Assembly (NCBI GenBank): GCA_020279385.1
Contig: GCA_020279385.1_4762.2
Source: a phage
Length of the DNA stretch: 64,000 nucleotides
Reading direction: 5' to 3' (one strand)
Positions 2,326-15,712 of this stretch are shown piece by piece. Made by a program: the position numbers and the translations under genes. A model generated the notes under the pieces. That model worked only from the letters and a program-made list of their open reading frames with translations, was not told where the DNA came from and did no database searches. Each line of letters begins with the position of its first letter. Position 1 is the stretch's first letter.

Positions 2326-3465
2326 TTAATCAACATCGAACTCTTTAAAGTTGTTGGATGTGACATGTTTATTGTCTCTAGGTAGTTTAAGAAGACTCAT
2401 AACAGGGTTAGTAAAATCACCGTTATCCTGAATATGAGTTGTTCTAACACCATTAACACCAAAGGAAGTAGGACCAGTAGTTTTGACGACTCCACTGATC
2501 GGCGTTATTAGTATGTTTCTAATTTTAACAATACCTTCGTTGGAGTTGGTTGGATATCTGATACAACCAGTTACTACACTATCAACTCCTTCCGGTACGG
2601 TATAGACGGCTTCAAACTTTTCCCATTGATCTTTCTGGCTGGCATTATAACGAACGCCAGTTTTATATTGTCCATCGGTGAAGTAGTTGTGATAGAAACG
2701 CGCTGTTACGTTGGCTGCGGCTGCGGCACTATCACGGAACAATTCAAAGGATATTGATAGTTTGTCACCTGCCTTTATGTTAAAATATTCAAGTGGTGCG
2801 CTGATCTCATCATGAGGCCATTGTATTAGCTCGAAATGTTCGGCATCTTCGCTAACATATTCAACCGGATAATCTAAAAATCGTTGTGGTGTTCCTGTTA
2901 TAGCAAGATCATCTATAGTATCATAGACTTTCTCAATTTGTATAGATGAATCTTGTCCTTCCCCGTGGGTCGCTTGCATCCCTTCGCACACAATTTTACC
3001 CATTTTAGTAGAATAAATTGCTGCATAGGATACACGAGGCATTTGCTGTAACAAAATATGATTCGGGAATGATACAGATCCCATCTTAGAAAACACATCA
3101 TCGCTTATCGGATCTGCAAACAATTCTCCATGCGTTGCCATCGCAATGATATAGTCACCTTTCAGCAAAGAAAGATAATCACGCATTGCCAAAACAGCAC
3201 CGCGACCATAGAATACCTTTTCTTCGTGTAGTTGTCCAGTTGGAGTAAGAACTTTAAAATTTAGGCCATTTTCATAGCCAGTGCCAACGATCTCCACTCC
3301 ATTAAATCTAATTCTTGCTGGTTTGGTAGAATCCGCATTAGATCCGCGCACTTCCAGCTTATACATCACAGAGTTATTTTCTGAAATGCTGGTAAATGTC
3401 GCAGAGTCTTCGTCGAAATGCGCAAACCTAATTCCAGTGTTGCGTAATTCTATCTCTTGTGTCAT
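2326..3465 (-). CDS. 35: Long tail fibre hinge protein gp35
   Basis: 379 aa ORF between gp34 and gp36; size and position match T4 gp35 (372 aa). Confidence 0.65.
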   Translation of the reverse strand: MTQEIELRNTGIRFAHFDEDSATFTSISENNSVMYKLEVRGSNADSTKPARIRFNGVEIVGTGYENGLNFKVLTPTGQLHEEKVFYGRGAVLAMRDYLSLLKGDYIIAMATHGELFADPISDDVFSKMGSVSFPNHILLQQMPRVSYAAIYSTKMGKIVCEGMQATHGEGQDSSIQIEKVYDTIDDLAITGTPQRFLDYPVEYVSEDAEHFELIQWPHDEISAPLEYFNIKAGDKLSISFELFRDSAAAAANVTARFYHNYFTDGQYKTGVRYNASQKDQWEKFEAVYTVPEGVDSVVTGCIRYPTNSNEGIVKIRNILITPISGVVKTTGPTSFGVNGVRTTHIQDNGDFTNPVMSLLKLPRDNKHVTSNNFKEFDVD

Positions 3466-3498: not shown

Positions 3499-6400
3499 TT
3501 AGTCTTCCCAGATAAAATCTACGGTACGAGTCAAATTATTGGCAATAATTTTAACATTACCAACCTTGATCCAATCACGAACCGTCATAGAGTTCATCAA
3601 ACCACCTTCGGCAACCACTGCCCCGATTTCCTGAGCGGTAGGCTTGTTCTGTTTGGTGTAAATTTCGCCCCATGCGGTCCATTGACCATCTGTACCAGAA
3701 CGGATATAATGCTTATGAGTACCATCAGGCGACCAGATTTGGGTAAGGCCGTTTTCGTCAGTACCCCATTGCATCAATGTACCATTTTTCTTTTCTGGGT
3801 AGGTTTCTTTGATGTTTTGGGTAGTTACTCGCATGTTCCAGAAGCCAATGTTACCAATTGCTGGCGCAGTAGTAGCGATCGCTTCATGCTTAACGGATAC
3901 AATAGACGCATTATCCATAATCAATTTACCAGTCATTGTATCACCAGCATTCTTAACAAACTGACGATTAAGAACTTCGTCTGCGTTTCCTGCGTGGACG
4001 ATCTGATATTTCTGTCCGGCAATCTCTGTAGTAAGCGTCTGATAACCTGCTTTGATGTTAACACTTCCACCGTGACCGATATTCAGCATACCATCTGGGG
4101 AACGAGTCATTGCCGGATTAGACTGGTCAACAATGTATAAACCGCCTTGTTTCGCATACAGGTTACGACCTGCAATAAAGTCTCTATATGCTGTCGCGTC
4201 GCCATTGTGTTCCATAGCAAAGGCGTAATGCTCGACTAATCCACCATCATTGATTTTACCGAAAGCGATAGCATTACTATCAACAACTTGAGATGTTCCA
4301 GTGCCACCAACGATAATAGACCATGAGTTTTCCATACCTTCCGATGCGGTTGCGCCATGCAGAGTAATTCCGGTGTGACCGTCAACTCCACGCTCACCCA
4401 ACACCAGATGACCATTACTCGGATCATCAGTCGAGTTCTTAGTCACAAACAGAGTTTCAAAGGAACCTGATTTTAAGCACTCTAAATCGCCCTTCACGTT
4501 AACGTTTTTATTAAACGTGTAATTGCTCTCAATGGTCTGGTCAATGTCTCTACGCGCCCATTTAGCGGCCTCTACGTCACCCAATTTCAAACTATTCTGA
4601 GCGGTTGCCATCTTAGGTAAGAAATTAGCAAGTGCGTAGTTTAATCCTTTAGGGGTAACAGCAATTCCGTCATGCTGGTAGTTTCCTAGTTCTTGAGTAG
4701 AACCTTGCAGATTGTCACCAACAAAACAGTTTTCCTGAGTAGCAACTTTCAAGAAACCACGACGAGCTTCGGTTGCTTTCCATGTATCCTCTGTCTGAAC
4801 AACATATTTGAAGTTCTTCGGAGAAATTGCTACATTAGCCAGTGTACCAGCCACGGTTTCGGCTTGAGTACCAACTCGGATAATACCTTCTTTACCTTCG
4901 GTGGCCTTTTTGCCTTGCAGCTTTTTAGGAGTAATGATCGTAGCGTCATCTTCTCCTGCGTCTGTAAGCTGAGTAGTTGCAACTTTAGCGACACCTTTTG
5001 TATCTTCGGTTGCATCAAGACCGCTGATCATGATACCCTGCCACAAGTCACCAGTAAGGTTAAGCCCCTGAGTCGGGTCTACTTTCAAACGCTGCGCATT
5101 CTCAAAGAAGGTTTTAATCTTCAATGGGGTAGAAATGCGAGCATCGTCAAGACCTGCGTCAAATTCCGGTTGAGTTGCAATTTCTGCTAAACCATGTAAA
5201 GTTTCCGTTGCGCGGCGAGTATGCAGCTTTTTAGGCGTGATGATATGGTTATCACTTTGACCTAAGTTTGTTTCTTCCTGAGTTGCAATTTCAGCGATAC
5301 CAGTGCGCGATTCGGTAGCAGTACGTTTCGTTAGCGTGCGAGTCGTGATTAGTAAAGCATCTTGCGGGGTTGATTCTGTAGCCCCTTGCACTTCCGCGTC
5401 AGTTGCCAGATAACCAACACCACGGGAAGTTTCGGTCGCCTTGACTTCGTTGATGTTTTGTGGCGTAACAATTTTAACATGGTCGTTGATGTTATAGATC
5501 CCTGTACCAGCTTCACCACGTCTAGCGGCAGCACTACCGCCAGCCTGAACAATTTCAGCAATACCAGCGAGATCTTCGGAAGCGCGACGTTCTTCTAATT
5601 TCTTAGGAGTAATAGCGCGGGTATCGTCTAAACCTTCATTGGTTTCTTGCTGGGTTGCAATTTCCATCACGCCACGACGGGCTTCGGTAGCAACACAATC
5701 ATTTAACTTTTTAGGCGTAACGATAACATCATCCAGGAAGCTGGAACCAGTATCTTGATGCGTTTCCGCTTGAGTTGCAATGCGAGCAATACCGCGTCGA
5801 GTTTCGTTGGCTGTTTTGTTAGCCAGAACCTTTGGAGTCACCGCAACTTCGTCGCTAGGATTATCTTCATGGTTTTTGTTTGTTTCATCCTGGGTAGCCA
5901 GTGCAATTACACCAACACGATCTTTACGAGTCGGATCTACTCGTTCTACAATCGGGTGAGCATGTGCCACCAACCAGTATTTCTTACCATCATCACCTTC
6001 TGAATAAGAGAACTCCAGATAAGGTACATAATCATTTGCAGCGTTGAAAGACAATTCAGACACTCCCGTCCATGTATCGGTCCCATTGAATGGGTACTCG
6101 CTACGCTTAGGAAACTGAACCATGTTTTTCTGAATAAGGATTTTTGTATCCTCTGTGGCGGTGATAATACGGCAATTCTGGTTTCCGTGCATATACTGCA
6201 TAGAAACTTGAATACGATCACCCGGCTCGACATTGGTTGGTAAAGTCAAGGTAACATCACGTTCACCAAATACTGCAACATAGCTATTAGGGGATAAGCG
6301 AGTATCACTAATGATAGGATTCAAGCGAACAGACTGATCACCATCCCACAAACGCCATAAGTTTTCCGGTTTGTCAAATATGAATACACCATGACCGCTA

Positions 6401-9592: not shown

Positions 9593-10270
9593 ATGATCAG
9601 AAACCGTCTTCCTCCAGATCCAGATATGCGAATTAATGCTAAATCTGTGTATATGTTATATTGCATGATGAAAGCTCATATGAACGGGCGTTATGATTGC
9701 GTAAAATATAATTGGAGGATGCGGTTGTCTGATGCCGCATTCAATAAACGCAGAGATAAGTATTATTTCGCAAAATTAGCGGAAAAGTACAATCTAAGAG
9801 AATTATACTTCTTATTCCTAAGCAATCTGGTAGCCAATACCGATGCATGGGTAGGTGAAATCACCGATGTTGACGCATACGGCTTTTATATGGAATACAT
9901 AGGAAAGATAACTGATGCAGCAACACGATTTGACGATGACATTAAAAGTCTGGTATACTTCTCAGAGAAACGCGGGGTTACTCTTAAAGAGCTAATTACA
10001 TACAATCCCGCAACCGAAACTAGCGGTATCTTTAAACTACTGCAAAATCGGATTATATCGTTTGAGTCGTTTATGTTGTTAGATAGCTTTCTAAATATAA
10101 TCGACGAACACGATAAGGTAGCCAAAGACTTGATTTGGCAAACTTATAGTGTTAAAATGAAGGCGTACAAGAAACTACTTGTTATTGACGCCGCAAAAGC
10201 AAGAGCATTATTTGTTAAAGTAGTTAAAGAGTGTAAAGAAATATCGAGGTTAAAAGGTGAAAACATATGA
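9593..10270 (+). CDS. 59: gp59 helicase loader
   Basis: 225 aa; KSVYMLYCMMKAHMNGRYDCVKYNWRMRLSDAAFNKRRDKYYF... closely matches T4 gp59 as recalled. Confidence 0.9.
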   Translation: MIRNRLPPDPDMRINAKSVYMLYCMMKAHMNGRYDCVKYNWRMRLSDAAFNKRRDKYYFAKLAEKYNLRELYFLFLSNLVANTDAWVGEITDVDAYGFYMEYIGKITDAATRFDDDIKSLVYFSEKRGVTLKELITYNPATETSGIFKLLQNRIISFESFMLLDSFLNIIDEHDKVAKDLIWQTYSVKMKAYKKLLVIDAAKARALFVKVVKECKEISRLKGENI

Positions 10271-10853
10271 TCCTGAATTGTATGCTCGTTGTCATGAACT
10301 CTTTAAATATGATAACGGTAAGCTGATTCGCAAGATATCGACAAACCGAAAGCATAAAGTCGGATCTAGAGCGGGTGGAGTTAATCCTAGTCATGGATAC
10401 AGATTGGTGTGTATCGATGGTAAACATCATAAAGAGCATAGAATAATTTTCTTTATGCATCATGGATACATGCCAAAATACGTTGACCATGTTAACCGAA
10501 TTATAACAGATAATCGGATTGAAAACTTGAGAGATGCGAACGAGCAACAAAACTCAAGAAATATGGGTAAACAGAAAGGTCGATCGTCTGAATATATCGG
10601 TGTTAGTCTTTATAAACGAGATGGTAAATATGTTGCCAATATTCAGGTCGAAAGAAAGAAGTTGATATATTTGGGAATATATGTTCATGAGAAAGCGGCA
10701 GCACTTGCGAGAAACTTTGTTGCTGATGCTATAGACCCAAACTTTTTCAACAAAACAGAAGTAGTTGACATTTCTCCCGAAGAGATGTTAGAATTTGAAA
10801 ATAGAAAGCCAAAACTGTTAGATATAATTGATAAAGTATTGACAAGCAATTAA
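10257..10853 (+). CDS. HNH homing endonuclease with AP2-type DNA-binding domain (free-standing, inserted between 59 and 32)
   Basis: GTG start overlapping gp59 end; HNH_3-like GYRLVCIDGKHHKEHRIIF...VDHVNRIITDNRIENLR; AP2-like SEYIGVSLYKRDGKYVANIQ...GIYVHEKAAALA. Confidence 0.8.
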   Translation: MKTYDPELYARCHELFKYDNGKLIRKISTNRKHKVGSRAGGVNPSHGYRLVCIDGKHHKEHRIIFFMHHGYMPKYVDHVNRIITDNRIENLRDANEQQNSRNMGKQKGRSSEYIGVSLYKRDGKYVANIQVERKKLIYLGIYVHEKAAALARNFVADAIDPNFFNKTEVVDISPEEMLEFENRKPKLLDIIDKVLTSN

Positions 10854-10913: not shown

Positions 10914-11888
10914 ATGAACATGTTTCGTCGTCAAGATAGCTCCAAACTGCAAGCTCAACTGGCCGCACTGAAAGGTGGCAACGGTTTCTCCAAAGAAGAT
11001 CCGAAAGAGTGGAAGATTAAGACTGATGCAGCAGGTAACGGTGAAGCCCTGATTCGCTTCCTGCCGTCTAAGACAGAAGACGGTCTGCCGATTGTGAAAC
11101 TGGTAAACCATTCCTTCAAAGTTAATGGTAAATGGTATTGGGAAAACTGCTCCAGCACCCACGGTGATTTTGATTCTTGCCCTGTGTGCAAATATATTAA
11201 CGAAAAAGATCTGTACAATACCGATAAAACCGAATGGCAACTGATTAAGCGTAAAGCGTCTTACTACGCAAATATTCTGGTACTGAAAGATCCTCAAGCA
11301 CCAGAAAATGAAGGTAAGGTATTCAAATTCCGCTTCGGTCAGAAAATTTATGATAAGATCGTTGCGATGGTGAACGTGAATACCGATATGGGCGAAGTTC
11401 CGGTAGATGTAACTTGTGTGTTCTCCGGTGCTAACTTCCTCCTGAAAGCTAAGAAGGTTGATAAACACCAGAACTATGATGATTCTCGTTTCATGCAGCA
11501 ATCACAGCTTCCGAAAATTGAAGACGAAGCATATCAGAAATATCTGATGGAAAACATGGTTGATCTGAGTGAGATTGTAGCGCCTAGCCAGTTTAAACCG
11601 TTCGATGAACTGGAAACCAAATTTAAGAAAACTATGGGCGTTTCTATGGTAGCTGGTGCTGCGGCTTCCAGTGCCGCGGCAGCGATTAACAGCCAGCTTG
11701 ACGATTTTGACGCACAGATGAATGCATTCGATTCTGGTATGACCGCAGCTAGCACTGTAGTTGGTATTAACGCAGCTAGCACGGCGTTAGATTCTTCCGC
11801 TGATGACCTGATGGCATCTCTGGATCTGGGTGGCGGTACTTCCTCCGCTTCTGATCTGGATGACCTGGATTCTCTGTTAGCGATGTAA
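10914..11888 (+). CDS. 32: gp32 single-stranded DNA-binding protein
   Basis: 324 aa; [61 protein letters not shown] match T4 gp32 as recalled; S/A/D-rich C-terminal tail. Confidence 0.95.
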
Positions 11889-11896
11889 TGAATTTT

Positions 11897-11926
11897 ACAG
11901 CCTCCCTTCGGGGAGGCTTTTTTATT
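11897..11926 (+). terminator. Rho-independent terminator after gene 32
   Basis: AGCCTCCCTTCGGGGAGGCT hairpin followed by TTTTTTATT. Confidence 0.7.
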
Positions 11927-11950
11927 GCCTAAATTTTTATGAAAAAGGTG

Positions 11951-11979
11951 TTGACATGCTGATGTTAGGATGTATAATA
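11951..11979 (+). promoter_or_regulatory. Sigma70-like early promoter
   Basis: TTGACA - 17 nt - TATAAT, then the recurrent ...ACAAACATCGAAACA...AGGAGG leader. Confidence 0.6.
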
Positions 11980-12008
11980 CAAACATCGAAACAAAGGAGG
12001 ATAAAATT

Positions 12009-13187
12009 ATGTTAGTACGTCAAGCACATGAGATTCGTATAGAAATAAAAGGAAACACGAAAACTCCCTTCTATTGGGAAAATGTTGTAAAAAATTCATG
12101 TTTGGAAGTTGGTTATTCTTTCATGGGGTTTGTTGGAGAATGGTCTGGTCTCAAAACAAAAGCTCTTATATTATGTAATAACAAGCATGAATACACATCA
12201 ACTCTAGCAAATATCAGGAAAAAAGTTTCGTGTAAGAAATGTGTGGTTGATTCTCAAAGATTAAACCTAAACCATGTGATAGAAAGAATAAAACAAGAAA
12301 CAAACGATGTATTTGTTGGTTTTGTTGGTGGGGAGTATAAAAATAGCAGAACAAGACTCATTATGAACTGTGCAAACGGACACACATACCAACCAACATA
12401 TACAGATTTCATTCATCAAAAAACAAGATGTCCTTTATGTAACGGTGGCAAGATGTATGATAAAGAAGATTCCTTATCTTATATAAATGAAAATAAAGGA
12501 GATTATAAATTTTTGGGTATAATTGGGGAATGGAAAGGAACAAAAACTAAACTTAAATTTGAGTGTCCTAATAATCACATTTACGAACAAAGTTATGATA
12601 AGTTCAAACTAGGTCGTCGGTGTCACAAATGTAGCGGAACAGCACCAATAACAAAAAGTGACCGATTAAAACAAATTGAAAAAATATGCGAAACCAACAG
12701 ACTAAAATTTATTGGGATTTCAGGAAAGTGGAAAGGTGCATTAACAAGAATACTTCTGACATGCGAACGTAACCATGAATGGGTTGTAACTATTGATAAT
12801 TTTGTTAATCGCGGAACACGCTGCCCGTTGTGTTCTAAGCATGGTTATCAGGCATTAAAGACAGGAACTCTTTATATACAGAAATTAACCAACAATGATT
12901 CCTTTGTTGGCGTGAAATTTGGAATAACAAACAAAGAAACACATGAGCGCATGAGAAACCAATCTCGTGTTTCAAAGTTCGATCACGAGATCTTTTATGA
13001 ATTGACTTTACAAGATGGTCAAAAGATCTTAGAATTAGAAAACAAAATCAAGGAAGCGATGAAAGGTAAAACTTCCTATATCTCGAAAGAAGATATGCCG
13101 GATGGCTGGACAGAGACAGTAGCGCCGTCTGAATTGAGCACTATCATGTATATCGTAAAATCTTTTGAAAAAGAGTTGACAGCGTAA
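12009..13187 (+). CDS. Four tandem zinc-ribbon repeats plus C-terminal GIY-YIG-superfamily (T5orf172-like) domain; putative homing-endonuclease-like or DNA-binding protein
   Basis: Four ~65-aa repeats each with GxxGEWxGxKTK...C..NH.Y...Y..F.....C..C; C-terminus GTLYIQKL...VGVKFGITNKETHERMRNQ...DGWTET; start reassigned to ATG 12009 after AGGAGG. Confidence 0.5.
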   Translation: MLVRQAHEIRIEIKGNTKTPFYWENVVKNSCLEVGYSFMGFVGEWSGLKTKALILCNNKHEYTSTLANIRKKVSCKKCVVDSQRLNLNHVIERIKQETNDVFVGFVGGEYKNSRTRLIMNCANGHTYQPTYTDFIHQKTRCPLCNGGKMYDKEDSLSYINENKGDYKFLGIIGEWKGTKTKLKFECPNNHIYEQSYDKFKLGRRCHKCSGTAPITKSDRLKQIEKICETNRLKFIGISGKWKGALTRILLTCERNHEWVVTIDNFVNRGTRCPLCSKHGYQALKTGTLYIQKLTNNDSFVGVKFGITNKETHERMRNQSRVSKFDHEIFYELTLQDGQKILELENKIKEAMKGKTSYISKEDMPDGWTETVAPSELSTIMYIVKSFEKELTA

Positions 13188-13203
13188 CGCAACAGTGTAT
13201 AAT
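13176..13203 (+). promoter_or_regulatory. Sigma70-like early promoter
   Basis: TTGACA - 16 nt - TATAAT at the 3' end of the preceding ORF, followed by ACAAACATCGAAACAAAGAGAGG leader. Confidence 0.45.
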
Positions 13204-13234
13204 ACAAACATCGAAACAAAGAGAGGATTATATT

Positions 13235-13564
13235 ATGTGGACAGTAGAAAAAATCGTAGACGAATCAACCGAAATTGTCTCATGCGGGACTATTGAAGAA
13301 TGTCTTAACGCCGCTAACCGCGATTGTATTACGGTTTATGAATCTCGTCGCGGGGATGGCAGCTTAATTCAAAGTGATTATCGTTACACCGCACATAAAA
13401 TTGTATTCCGTTTCTGGGAAAACGGTGTTAATGTTGGTGTCAGCTTACTGAAAATGTGGCGTGATTATTCCGAACGCTATTATGTTTCTCCCGATGATGG
13501 TAATGAATTTAAAACCGAGATCACAGAAGAAAATGTAAACGAAAACTTCTTTAAACTGATTTGA
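13235..13564 (+). CDS. Hypothetical protein (109 aa)
   Basis: ORF with RBS AGAGAGG; no recognisable motif. Confidence 0.5.
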   Translation: MWTVEKIVDESTEIVSCGTIEECLNAANRDCITVYESRRGDGSLIQSDYRYTAHKIVFRFWENGVNVGVSLLKMWRDYSERYYVSPDDGNEFKTEITEENVNENFFKLI

Positions 13565-13578
13565 CAGGAGATTATATT

Positions 13579-14148
13579 ATGATTCAATGTGTATTTGCGA
13601 TTGGTAACACTAAAATGTCGGATGAAAATTGGGCTTTTGGTTTTAAAGGTGGCTTACCGTGGGGTCGTCCAATCAAAAAAGATATGGAAAACTTTCAAAT
13701 CCGCACTATTGGTGAGGTTGATTTTTCTGCGGTAGTAATGGGACGCAATACCTTTGAAAGTCTGCCTAAAGCACTTTGGGGACGTTTGAATGTGGTTGTT
13801 AGCACCGATACCAACAAGCCAGAACCGAAAGCTAAAAACGGCGACCAACCTGATGTGTATACTGGAATTGAATTGAAGGATCTGTTAAAAGCCCTAGAGA
13901 AAACGCAAGGTTTGGTAAGTGTTATCGGCGGACCTTCCCTGATTGAAAAAGCGGTTGACTTTGCGGACCGTATTGTGTTAACGTATGTTCAACGTTCAGG
14001 GATCAACGATCCATTTGAATATGATGTTGGAATCTCTAAGGAAATGATTCAGGAATTATATTTTGACTTTGCAACAAAAGAAGAACATAGTTACTTCCTT
14101 GATGATTACCTGATCAGCGAACAAATTTTAGAACGTAAGAAGGCGTAA
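13579..14148 (+). CDS. frd: Dihydrofolate reductase
   Basis: Position between 32 and td as in T4; size ~190 aa; start set at ATG 13579 after AGGAG. Confidence 0.75.
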   Translation: MIQCVFAIGNTKMSDENWAFGFKGGLPWGRPIKKDMENFQIRTIGEVDFSAVVMGRNTFESLPKALWGRLNVVVSTDTNKPEPKAKNGDQPDVYTGIELKDLLKALEKTQGLVSVIGGPSLIEKAVDFADRIVLTYVQRSGINDPFEYDVGISKEMIQELYFDFATKEEHSYFLDDYLISEQILERKKA

Positions 14149-14149
14149 C

Positions 14150-14242
14150 ATGAAAATTCTGACAGATTATGAGTGCAAACATTGTGGTGAATCTTTGATG
14201 TTTGCTGGTAGTCGGTGTTTACACTGCGGACGGGAACAATAA
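14150..14242 (+). CDS. Mini zinc-ribbon peptide (30 aa)
   Basis: MKILTDYECKHCGESLMFAGSRCLHCGREQ; CxxC-x13-CxxC; stop overlaps next ATG (TAATG). Confidence 0.3.
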   Translation: MKILTDYECKHCGESLMFAGSRCLHCGREQ

Positions 14243-14505
14243 TGAAAATCAGTATTATTCGATTATGGTCGGCAACCCATGAAAACTACGCAGTAGCAGA
14301 AGATCTTTACGGGTTGCAATATCTCTATGATGAATCGAAAGCGTCATGGTTTCCTGTACAAGAAAATAGCGATATATCAAGACCTGTTACTGTATTCGGT
14401 CCAGACGATATTTTTATTAACATTAGCGAGACAGTAGCAAAACTGCGTAAGAAAGCAAAGAAAAAGGGGAAGTGGGATGAAAGAATATTTGAAACTGTTA
14501 CGTGA
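14242..14505 (+). CDS. Hypothetical protein (87 aa)
   Basis: Coupled via TAATG to upstream mini-ORF; track ORF 14215..14505 probably starts at this internal ATG. Confidence 0.4.
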   Translation: MKISIIRLWSATHENYAVAEDLYGLQYLYDESKASWFPVQENSDISRPVTVFGPDDIFINISETVAKLRKKAKKKGKWDERIFETVT

Positions 14506-15712
14506 TGTTATTGATAATGGCTGGCCTCGTGAAGACCGCACGGGGGTAGGTACGCTCTCTAAATTCGGCGCAGAGATGCGAATTGATTTAAGCAAGGGTT
14601 TCCCCTTACTGACCACTAAAAAGATGGCTACAGCCTCTGTAATTGGCGAATTGCTATGGTTTATGGAGGGATCACTTGACCGCCGTCGCTTACAGGAAAT
14701 TACACGCGGCAAGTTTGACGAGGAAGCCTTTGATATTTGGCGCGGCAACTGTCTTGATATGAAAGAAAAGAATCCCTTGCGATTCAATGGTTATAATGTC
14801 GGCAATATGTATGGTATGGCGTGGCGACGCAAACCGATTCATCCACACGGTGAAATCAAAATTAAGCGAGTTAAGAGCAAATATGCACATACATTTAAGC
14901 ACCCGTGGGTAGAAGACTTTACGCCAACCAATGAAACAGAAGACCGTTTATGTGCTATCTGGCGTGGTATGCGTTATGAAGAGTTTGATTCTGAATATAA
15001 TCAATTCTTAGTAGCCGATCACTGGAAGACTCAATCTAATTTTGTTAATGATGCATATTGCTTGTGGGGATTCCAGGAATGGGTAGATGATGGTTATTTC
15101 GGTTATCTGCTTGATAGTGATTATCTGGGTGGGGATATTTTAGCACCAGATACCACGATCTTTGCTAGTATGGACGTAGACACATCAAGCACTAAAGACG
15201 ATGAAGAATATGTCTATCGCCCGAAGATTTGGGAAGACCAGTTACAAAAAGTTATTGACATGATCAAGAATGATCCGTATAGTCGTCGTATTATCATTGA
15301 TTCATGGAACGTACAGGAAACGCATAATGCTGTGTTAGGTGTATGTCATCCGATGGTACAGTTTTATGTTTCCAACGACAACAAATTGAGTTGTTTATTT
15401 TTCATGCGTTCGAATGATCTCTTTTTAGGGAATCCGTTCAACGTAGCGAGCTATGCACTGTTAACGCATATCATCGCGAAGATTTGCGGGTTAGAAGTTG
15501 GCGAACTGGTTTATCAGTGTGGGGATTGCCACATTTACAAAAACCATTTTGATCAAGTTATGGAACAGTTAAGCCGTGTTCCGTTTGATAAACCAACAAT
15601 TGAGTTGCCGGAATTTAAGTCTTTAGATGAGGTATTGACAAAGACTCCGAAAGACTTTAAAATTCACAACTATCAAAGCCATCCAGCAATCACCGCTCAA
15701 ATGGCAGTATAA
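14477..15712 (+). CDS. td: Thymidylate synthase with ~130-aa internal insertion
   Basis: TS blocks DRTGVGT, GFPLLTTKK, RRIIIDSWNV, CHPMVQFYV, LFLGNPFNVASYALLTHI, continuous frame; 411 aa versus ~286 in T4. Confidence 0.9.
   Translation: MKEYLKLLRDVIDNGWPREDRTGVGTLSKFGAEMRIDLSKGFPLLTTKKMATASVIGELLWFMEGSLDRRRLQEITRGKFDEEAFDIWRGNCLDMKEKNPLRFNGYNVGNMYGMAWRRKPIHPHGEIKIKRVKSKYAHTFKHPWVEDFTPTNETEDRLCAIWRGMRYEEFDSEYNQFLVADHWKTQSNFVNDAYCLWGFQEWVDDGYFGYLLDSDYLGGDILAPDTTIFASMDVDTSSTKDDEEYVYRPKIWEDQLQKVIDMIKNDPYSRRIIIDSWNVQETHNAVLGVCHPMVQFYVSNDNKLSCLFFMRSNDLFLGNPFNVASYALLTHIIAKICGLEVGELVYQCGDCHIYKNHFDQVMEQLSRVPFDKPTIELPEFKSLDEVLTKTPKDFKIHNYQSHPAITAQMAV

Follow-up and report, generated by a model that had tools for sequence, protein, structure and literature searches.

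A putative CapR/T5orf172-class homing endonuclease gene in a promoter-bounded slot between gene 32 and frd of an RB49-like phage

Results

A 392-codon gene follows the gene 32 terminator

The 64-kb stretch of DNA analysed here (hereafter the window) comes from an RB49-like, T4-type phage, a Krischvirus. Its region 11000–14200 is 99.4% identical to Escherichia phage vB_EcoM_Skers (Skers) and 91–95% identical to GEC-3S, RB49, Phi1 and many others. After gene 32, whose last nucleotide is 11888, come an intrinsic terminator, a sigma-70 promoter that matches the consensus at all positions scored, and a long ORF (Table 1). A mechanical ORF listing gives this ORF as 405 aa (11970–13187), with an ATG that sits within the -10 box. 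Starting instead at the ATG at 12009, which has a Shine-Dalgarno (SD) sequence, AGGAGG, upstream at 11995–12000, the ORF encodes exactly 392 aa and stops at 13185–13187. The initial annotation, which had placed a 392-aa ORF behind a gene 32 terminator and a strong promoter, is thus confirmed on this point; its range for the feature, 11945–13203, runs from the upstream promoter through a second promoter at the 3' end of the gene. An HNH-AP2 putative endonuclease gene lies upstream of gene 32, so that gene 32 is bracketed by this gene and the one described here.

Table 1. Features of the 32–frd junction in the window (nucleotide positions of the window; aa positions of the 392-aa protein).
Feature	Position	Strand	Remarks
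Gene 32 intrinsic terminator	11899..11918	+	8-bp stem, 6 GC, then T-run; kept in empty-site genome
Resident early sigma-70 promoter	11951..11978	+	TTGACA-16-TATAAT, 12/12 consensus; predicted to drive the endonuclease gene here
26-nt exact direct repeat, left copy	11971..11996	+	-10 box and 5' UTR up to SD
CapR-array / T5orf172-like GIY-YIG putative homing endonuclease ORF	12009..13187	+	392 aa; PHROG 681, Skers annotation
CapR Zn module 1	12063..12254	+	aa 19–82; ligands C56, H60, C75, C78
CapR Zn module 2	12255..12452	+	aa 83–148; ligands C121, H125, C141, C144
CapR Zn module 3	12459..12644	+	aa 151–212; ligands C186, H190, C205, C208
CapR Zn module 4	12651..12845	+	aa 215–279; ligands C252, H256, C272, C275
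GIY-YIG-fold nuclease domain, T5orf172/MUG113 branch	12849..13184	+	aa 281–392, 112 aa
Second sigma-70 promoter	13176..13203	+	12/12 consensus; cassette-borne; -35 box within last ORF codons
26-nt exact direct repeat, right copy	13196..13221	+	identical to left copy
Downstream 109-aa ORF of no assigned function	13235..13564	+	context, outside cassette

This is an uncharacterised gene of a known class, and nearly identical public genomes already label it accordingly: the Skers gene is labelled 'putative GIY-YIG nuclease family protein', and RefSeq labels the GEC-3S and RB49 genes 'endonuclease'. No paralogue of the gene or of its nuclease domain was found elsewhere in the 64-kb window. That the ORF is an artefact, arising by chance or from low-complexity repeats, can be dismissed for practical purposes: nothing was found in its favour, PHROG 681 ('endonuclease') matches the protein with an E-value of 3e-100, Pfam recognises its repeats (E 2e-28, see below), a profile of its C-terminal domain matches 1700 cluster representatives at E<=1e-3, and the promoter, SD and full-length ORF are conserved across several phages.

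The N-terminal array consists of four CapR zinc modules

Four repeats of about 65 aa with zinc ligands had been proposed in this protein, and both a repeat alignment and a Pfam match to the CapR homology domain (PF21817; 98.7 bits against a cut-off of 24.2, in four stretches) confirm them far beyond chance. The tandem repeats (n = 4) start about 64–66 aa apart, with an anchor motif at aa 38, 102, 168 and 234. Eight residues (F, G, G, T, C, H, C and C) are invariant in all four modules and the ligands follow the pattern C-x3-H...C-x2-C, the first ligand pair in the window allele being C/H, not C/C. In an alignment of 21 alleles, the Cys ligand positions are invariant or nearly so. The DUF4379 treble-clef zinc finger model also matches (44.3 bits, cut-off 24.5) and overlaps the CapR stretches, and RepA_N is absent from the protein in the Pfam search. 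The four modules of the window are mutually divergent (24–28% identity) and are old. CapR domains are expected to have two pairs of zinc ligands about 15–26 residues apart; in PLE CapR, where the ligand pattern is CxxC...CxC, Cys-to-Ser mutants lose DNA binding (PMC8096241). The repeats are thus supported as predicted zinc-finger-type DNA-binding modules of the CapR/DUF4379 type.

A full-length AlphaFold (AF2) model (mean pLDDT 85, pTM 0.34) renders each module as a confident alpha-beta-beta-beta-alpha unit and the linkers with low confidence. Such linkers, together with the low pTM, make the model the picture expected of beads on a string. When the full-length model was compared with the PDB using Foldseek, no match was found at E<=1e-3; the top weak matches were tandem dsRBD proteins, probably only because the alpha-beta-beta-beta-alpha repeat topology is common to both.

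The C-terminal domain has a GIY-YIG fold

The motifs GTLYIQKL, VKFGITN and DGWTET are present between aa 286 and 370. Searches of Pfam and NCBIfam with the whole 392-aa protein returned no nuclease-domain match, so an alignment was made of 17 homologues over their C-terminal ~112 aa. On its own, the window's domain reaches 13.9 bits against MUG113 (PF13455; cut-off 22.3, E 0.085) and has no Pfam match to T5orf172 (PF10544). At E<=10, however, 12 of the 17 homologous domains match MUG113 (best 1e-6), nine match T5orf172 and two GIY-YIG, and one homologue, P0032, clears the MUG113 cut-off with 26.5 bits. Since the window's own score lies below the Pfam cut-offs and its homologues match, membership in T5orf172/MUG113 rests on transitive homology and fold. 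The similarity to GIY-YIG/T5orf172 profiles anticipated in the initial annotation is therefore present by way of the homologues (MUG113, T5orf172), the window's domain itself falling short of the cut-offs. By these comparisons the domain is a divergent sub-branch that the Pfam T5orf172/MUG113 models reach only partly. Against PDB sequences, the C-terminal profile gave only spurious matches, to designed repeat proteins.

The GIY-YIG fold is a three-stranded antiparallel sheet with flanking helices, in the order b-b-a-b-a-a, and this is the topology of an AlphaFold model of aa 281–392 (pLDDT 94.9). The closest solved structures to the model are SLX1-type GIY-YIG nucleases. Foldseek against BFVD retrieved 107 viral models at E<=1e-3, among them 'GIY-YIG domain-containing', 'Homing endonuclease' and 'Bacteriophage T5 Orf172 DNA-binding domain-containing' proteins. 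The catalytic set of GIY-YIG enzymes comprises a Tyr in strand 1, a Tyr in strand 2, an Arg in helix 1 and a metal-binding Glu; in the T5orf172 'KIG' variant, a Lys takes the place of the strand-2 Tyr. In the model, Y289 is located in strand 1, K303-x-G305 in strand 2, R314 in helix 1 and E344 in helix 2, and these residues would thus fall in the secondary-structure elements expected for GIY-YIG catalytic residues. Conservation was assessed at two depths: (i) among the 17 homologues, K23, G25, R34, E64, D85, G86, T88, E89 and T90 (domain numbering) are invariant and Y9 (Y289) nearly so; and (ii) among 67 diverse members, K303, G305, R314, E344, G366, E369 and T370 are invariant and Y289 again nearly so. 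With Pfam matches of homologues, invariant motif residues and a confident fold, calling this a T5orf172-type GIY-YIG domain was right.

In the profile search, the domain was C-terminal in nearly all of the 150 matches listed, of 1700, and CapR modules lay upstream of it in 47 of 67 sampled members. The 198 phage records of the nuclease-domain family are Krischvirus, T5-like, jumbo, Vibrio and Aeromonas phages.

Among 19 four-module alleles, the array averages 29% pairwise identity and the nuclease domain 72%, against 98% for the final 22 residues, where the ORF overlaps the 3' promoter. This distribution bears on whether the protein might be a domesticated DNA-binding regulator, its array repressing transcription and its GIY-YIG-like domain dead and retained for a structural or DNA-binding role. 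CapR-domain proteins are proven transcriptional repressors (PMC8096241; CasPR preprint), the window's C-terminal domain is under the Pfam thresholds and the expression signals are strong and early, all of which would suit a regulator. However, CapR and the CasPRs lack a nuclease domain, whereas here the domain is present, its motif residues are invariant or nearly so in the 67 diverse homologues and its fold is modelled with very high confidence. A purely regulatory role of the CapR/CasPR kind seems very unlikely, given that no part of the protein is better conserved than the nuclease domain.

A duplicated promoter bounds the cassette

Aligned with each other, the two promoter regions are a direct repeat of 54 nt; its final 26 nt, which cover the -10 box and the 5' UTR, match exactly. 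Even when up to 3 mismatches are allowed, the 26-nt sequence has only two copies in 64 kb, with none expected by chance, which argues for a local duplication; a genome-wide promoter consensus was rejected as its source on the same count. Since the second promoter copy is at the 3' end of the gene, the cassette is bounded by the 26-nt exact repeat.

In KMB43, where the site is empty, the order is terminator, promoter, 5' UTR and 109-aa ORF, and the promoter drives that ORF, which in empty-site genomes comes directly after the gene 32 terminator-promoter element. The left promoter of the window has the -35 box of KMB43 and a near-identical spacer; the spacer of the right promoter differs from that of the resident promoter and is identical in the RB49 allele. 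Thus, the mobile unit appears to be the endonuclease ORF together with its 3'-end promoter, and the upstream promoter is really the resident one. The locus had been described as an own-promoter cassette, which holds for the 3'-end promoter that travels with the gene but not for the upstream promoter, found in KMB43 too. As judged from the aligned genomes, the junction of cassette and genome falls within the stretch of identity from the -10 box to the SD. Its 3' promoter is predicted to serve the downstream genes, so that the 109-aa ORF, frd and td would stay expressed and the insertion would be transcriptionally neutral for them.

In RB49/phi1, crossovers of promoter-early stem-loop elements (PeSLs) were mapped between the -10 box and the SD/ATG (Arbiol 2010, PMC2839356), the same zone as the junctions in the window. 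As in those PeSLs, a terminator stem-loop is combined with a strong sigma-70 early promoter, the gene 32 terminator being the stem-loop half of a PeSL-type element, and the ORF is flanked by a repeated promoter. Unlike in PeSLs, the right-hand copy is a promoter only, its -35 box lying within the ORF, and no stem-loop was found there. The repeat-bounded cassette would match the PeSL-type shuffling described for RB49; Arbiol 2010 (PMC2839356) does not mention the 32–frd locus or the gene.

The slot is empty, decayed or occupied in related phages

Comparison of the 32–frd junction among Krischvirus genomes, suggested in the initial annotation, revealed empty, pseudogene and occupied states, the occupied ones with alleles of 2–6 modules. 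The slot is empty in KMB43 and holds a 392-aa allele in the window, Skers and GEC-3S, a 485-aa allele in RB49, a 541-aa allele in JEP8 and a 404-aa allele plus an unrelated ORFan in FL04. KFS-EC has only an unrelated 109-aa ORFan; there, as in FL04, the same promoter repeat delimits the ORFan. MIZ4 carries a pseudogene with stop codons in the array, of which a 182-aa ORF with one module and the nuclease domain remains, the N-terminal part being broken by the stop codons. Presence and absence at a fixed site with precise junctions (KMB43 versus the window, Skers, GEC-3S, RB49 and FL04) and a degenerate copy, as expected from the invasion-decay cycle of homing endonuclease genes (HEGs), fit the free-standing, homing-endonuclease-like nature originally proposed for the gene. 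Divergent metagenomic alleles, 35–42% identical overall, have exactly the same 32/ORF/frd context.

Clustering of the modules points to three processes: a single module type has been amplified in tandem (2 to 6 copies), modules have undergone internal deletion or insertion (V..W vs VW), and segments are shared in mosaic fashion (RB49 GHDIE vs.D.E). The window and GEC-3S share ~99% identity in the gene, and the adjacent 109-aa ORF, itself a mosaic among the compared genomes, differs between them at up to 21/50 positions; the gene is thus far better conserved than its downstream neighbour. Such a contrast is what one would see if the gene had recently spread horizontally, or if a recombination boundary lay at it. 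In eight genomes, polymorphisms at the 3' end of gene 32 showed no association with whether the gene is present, and from those of gene 32 and the downstream ORF together no target site or co-conversion tract could be inferred.

A probable homing endonuclease

What maintains the gene at this site? We consider it probable that the gene encodes a putative free-standing homing endonuclease of the CapR/T5orf172 class. As modelled, its product has four independently folded CHCC zinc modules on flexible linkers, followed by a GIY-YIG-fold domain that keeps the Tyr/Lys-x-Gly/Arg/Glu/Glu positions invariant in the family, and the gene is predicted to be transcribed from the strong early promoter after the gene 32 terminator. 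In a mixed infection with a Krischvirus lacking this allele, the zinc-module array may recognise a long, asymmetric stretch of DNA, near which the tethered GIY-YIG domain may cut the gene-less or foreign allele. Repair of the break by recombination with the endonuclease-carrying genome would copy the cassette and its flanking markers. Through the 26-nt repeats, ordinary homologous recombination could additionally add the cassette, remove it or exchange one allele for another.

Several observations speak against homing. The window's own C-terminal domain scores below the Pfam thresholds, and the flank polymorphisms point to no target site. The perfect promoter and strong SD amount to unusually high expression for a homing endonuclease, with T4 seg genes and I-TevI as the comparison. 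Moreover, the slot also takes the unrelated 109-aa ORFan with the same promoter repeat (KFS-EC, FL04), so that the presence/absence pattern can arise without endonuclease activity, and recombination between promoter repeats, acting passively, has to be taken seriously as an alternative or a complement. The cassette could then move by PeSL-type promoter/UTR recombination alone, and the protein be kept for a benefit to the phage and not for its own spread, for instance degrading or excluding co-infecting relatives, satellites or host DNA, as Odn does with PLE. The PeSL crossovers demonstrated in RB49/phi1 (PMC2839356), the strong early expression signals and the turning of T5orf172 nucleases into anti-satellite weapons (PMC10448857) are in line with such a passive cassette, and the very different arrays of same-locus alleles (29%) would suit changing targets. 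On the other hand, the gene is dispensable, with empty and pseudogene states in otherwise near-identical phages; its array is made of CapR modules, not of a satellite-captured domain (no RepA_N); it adjoins the essential, highly conserved gene 32, a classic HEG position; and a second HEG (HNH-AP2) is found on the other side of gene 32. Overall, we regard passive movement as an unlikely explanation of the locus and retain the homing endonuclease as the preferred one.

Alternatively, the 32–frd slot may be an allelic 'specificity-switching' locus, in which a constant nuclease-plus-promoter end (72–98%) is combined with hypervariable arrays (~29%) of 2–6 modules. Each ~65-aa module would read a few bp in a re-programmable way, CapR modules would be amplified, deleted and shuffled, and rival alleles would cut each other's genomes, so that endonuclease-versus-endonuclease competition, not only empty sites, would supply the targets. 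We view this proposal as speculative and rather improbable.

Discussion

The initial annotation was right about the domains and the HEG-like nature of the gene, but the combination of CapR modules with a C-terminal T5orf172 domain is not unusual: it is the published typical architecture (PMC8096241, PMC10448857). In the putative HEGs of ICP1, a CapR-like domain at the N-terminus is paired with a T5orf172 domain at the C-terminus (Netter 2021, PMC8096241), and among 229 T5orf172 HEGs, 87% have zinc fingers of the CapR, DUF723 or DUF4379 type, which are often repeated, the repeats being gained, lost and exchanged (Barth 2023, PMC10448857). Nuclease activity of T5orf172 needs a Glu in one tested case, homing of the ICP1 T5orf172 HEGs is without experimental verification, and T5orf172 nucleases have been recruited for use against satellites, as Odn against PLE (PMC10448857).

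Beyond annotation, the gene is of little significance. It shows that T4-type (RB49-like) coliphages carry CapR/T5orf172 putative HEGs, a class described mainly in ICP1 and other phages, and the bracketing of gene 32 by two different putative endonuclease genes corresponds to the 'HEG-island' picture of Barth et al. (PMC10448857). The locus is also a natural allelic series (empty, pseudogene, 2–6 modules) in easily grown coliphages, which could serve a first direct test of T5orf172 homing and of CapR-array DNA specificity.

The window gene shares with ICP1 gp165 and gp174 the N-terminal CapR module(s), often repeated, and the C-terminal T5orf172-type GIY-YIG domain. Like the ICP1 T5orf172 HEGs in general, it is free-standing and adjoins an essential gene, and its repeats are gained, lost and shuffled between alleles. 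It differs from them in its carrier, a T4-type Krischvirus, in its first ligand pair (C-x3-H, not CxxC), in a nuclease domain below the Pfam T5orf172/MUG113 cut-offs, and in being bounded by a duplicated early promoter. A homologue from phage T5, AAX12067.1 (34% identity, E 1e-37), was annotated years ago as 'RB49ORF238c-like'. It has the same nuclease domain and motifs but two CapR modules instead of four, and its context differs, between tail genes and pb2. Homologues also occur in T5-like, jumbo (121Q, RaK2, GAP32), Vibrio and Aeromonas phages.

With the Seg proteins of T4 (e.g., SegG) and I-TevI, the window gene has the catalytic fold of the GIY-YIG superfamily in common, and like SegG it is a free-standing gene adjoining gene 32. 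The marker-exclusion and co-conversion biology of the T4 GIY-YIG homing endonucleases would be expected here. We dropped the idea that the two genes occupy the same slot (32–frd) since the T4 annotation places SegG between genes 59 and 32. That slot (59–32) corresponds to the neighbouring HNH-AP2 gene in the window. Finally, PLE CapR and the CasPR anti-CRISPR repressors share the CapR zinc-finger DNA-binding domain with the window protein; unlike it, they have no nuclease domain and act as transcriptional repressors, the CasPRs combining CapR with AP2.

A probable general cargo site downstream of gene 32

The slot that follows the gene 32 terminator does not carry only the endonuclease gene. 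An unrelated ORFan of 109 aa can also lie there, with or without the endonuclease gene beside it, as seen in phages KFS-EC (L003) and FL04 (L007; coordinates in the table below). This ORFan had no Pfam match and showed no similarity to the ORF of equal length that lies downstream of the cassette in the window. The promoter/UTR repeat that flanks the endonuclease gene flanks this ORFan as well. Unrelated cargo framed by a common repeat indicates that the post-gene-32 slot is probably a general site for cassettes of the promoter-early stem-loop (PeSL) type.

The end of the endonuclease ORF itself is highly constant. The last 22 residues, VAPSELSTIMYIVKSFEKELTA, are ~98% identical even among alleles whose nuclease domains share just 50–75% identity, and the downstream promoter has its −35 box in the final codons. 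Conservation of this segment is probably explained by a role as promoter and recombination anchor rather than by protein function.

Downstream of the cassette, the 109-aa ORF of the window is strongly mosaic: phages that are otherwise 91–95% identical differ here at as many as 21 positions in 50 nt, and the adjoining frd gene is much more uniform across the same phages. The mosaic may mark a zone of co-conversion or escape, or the ORF may simply be a hyperplastic ORFan.

Features in the window and in compared sequences
Feature	Sequence	Coordinates	Strand	Product or extent
HNH_3 + AP2 gene (Pfam E 2e-11 and 7e-5)	window	10257-10853	+	198 aa
CapR modules of endonuclease	window	12063-12845		four modules
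C-terminal segment of endonuclease	window	13119-13184	+	aa 371-392
ORF downstream of cassette (homologous ORF in L002, L004, L006)	window	13235-13564	+	109 aa
Thymidylate synthase (Pfam model)	window	14477-15712	+	411 aa
ORFan in slot	L003 (KFS-EC)	2508-2837		109 aa
ORFan in slot	L007 (FL04)	3769-4098		109 aa
Endonuclease homologue	L009 (NMGG01000030.1)	3961-5157		398 aa

Structure and relatives of the endonuclease

When a model of the full-length endonuclease was compared with the PDB using Foldseek, the best matches were non-significant (E 4e-3 to 0.14) and consisted of tandem dsRNA-binding-domain proteins (TARBP2, Loqs, R2D2, NF90 and DGCR8). Each CapR module is predicted to have the alpha-beta-beta-beta-alpha element order of these domains, a likeness that is probably one of topology only.

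A homologue with 36% identity and four CapR modules is found in E. coli assembly GCA_002543985.1, where its nuclease domain passes the Pfam cut-off for MUG113. Its neighbourhood is quite different (PhoH, PHP and 2-hydroxyacid dehydrogenase), and its source is presumably another phage or prophage.

Additional features around gene 32

Because the 266 positions of the Pfam thymidylate synthase model are stretched across residues 2–411 of the window protein, the alignment implies a large internal insertion, very roughly 120–145 aa, that ordinary thymidylate synthases lack. RB49, KFS-EC and metagenomic relatives also have this long form (406–411 aa).

Upstream, an HNH-AP2 gene lies between genes 59 and 32 and shares 14 nt with the end of gene 59. 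Among the genomes compared, it was found in Skers, MIZ4 and a single metagenomic contig (L011), and was absent from RB49, GEC-3S, KFS-EC and KMB43. Compared with the genomes that lack it, the alignment shows 42 differences within its leading ~100 nt, which cover intergenic sequence and the start of gene 32, and gp32 is 324 aa long instead of 322 aa. Gene 32 thus has a putative homing endonuclease gene of a different kind on each side, HNH-AP2 upstream and CapR/GIY-YIG downstream. The slot of the HNH-AP2 gene, between 59 and 32, is the one that SegG occupies in T4.
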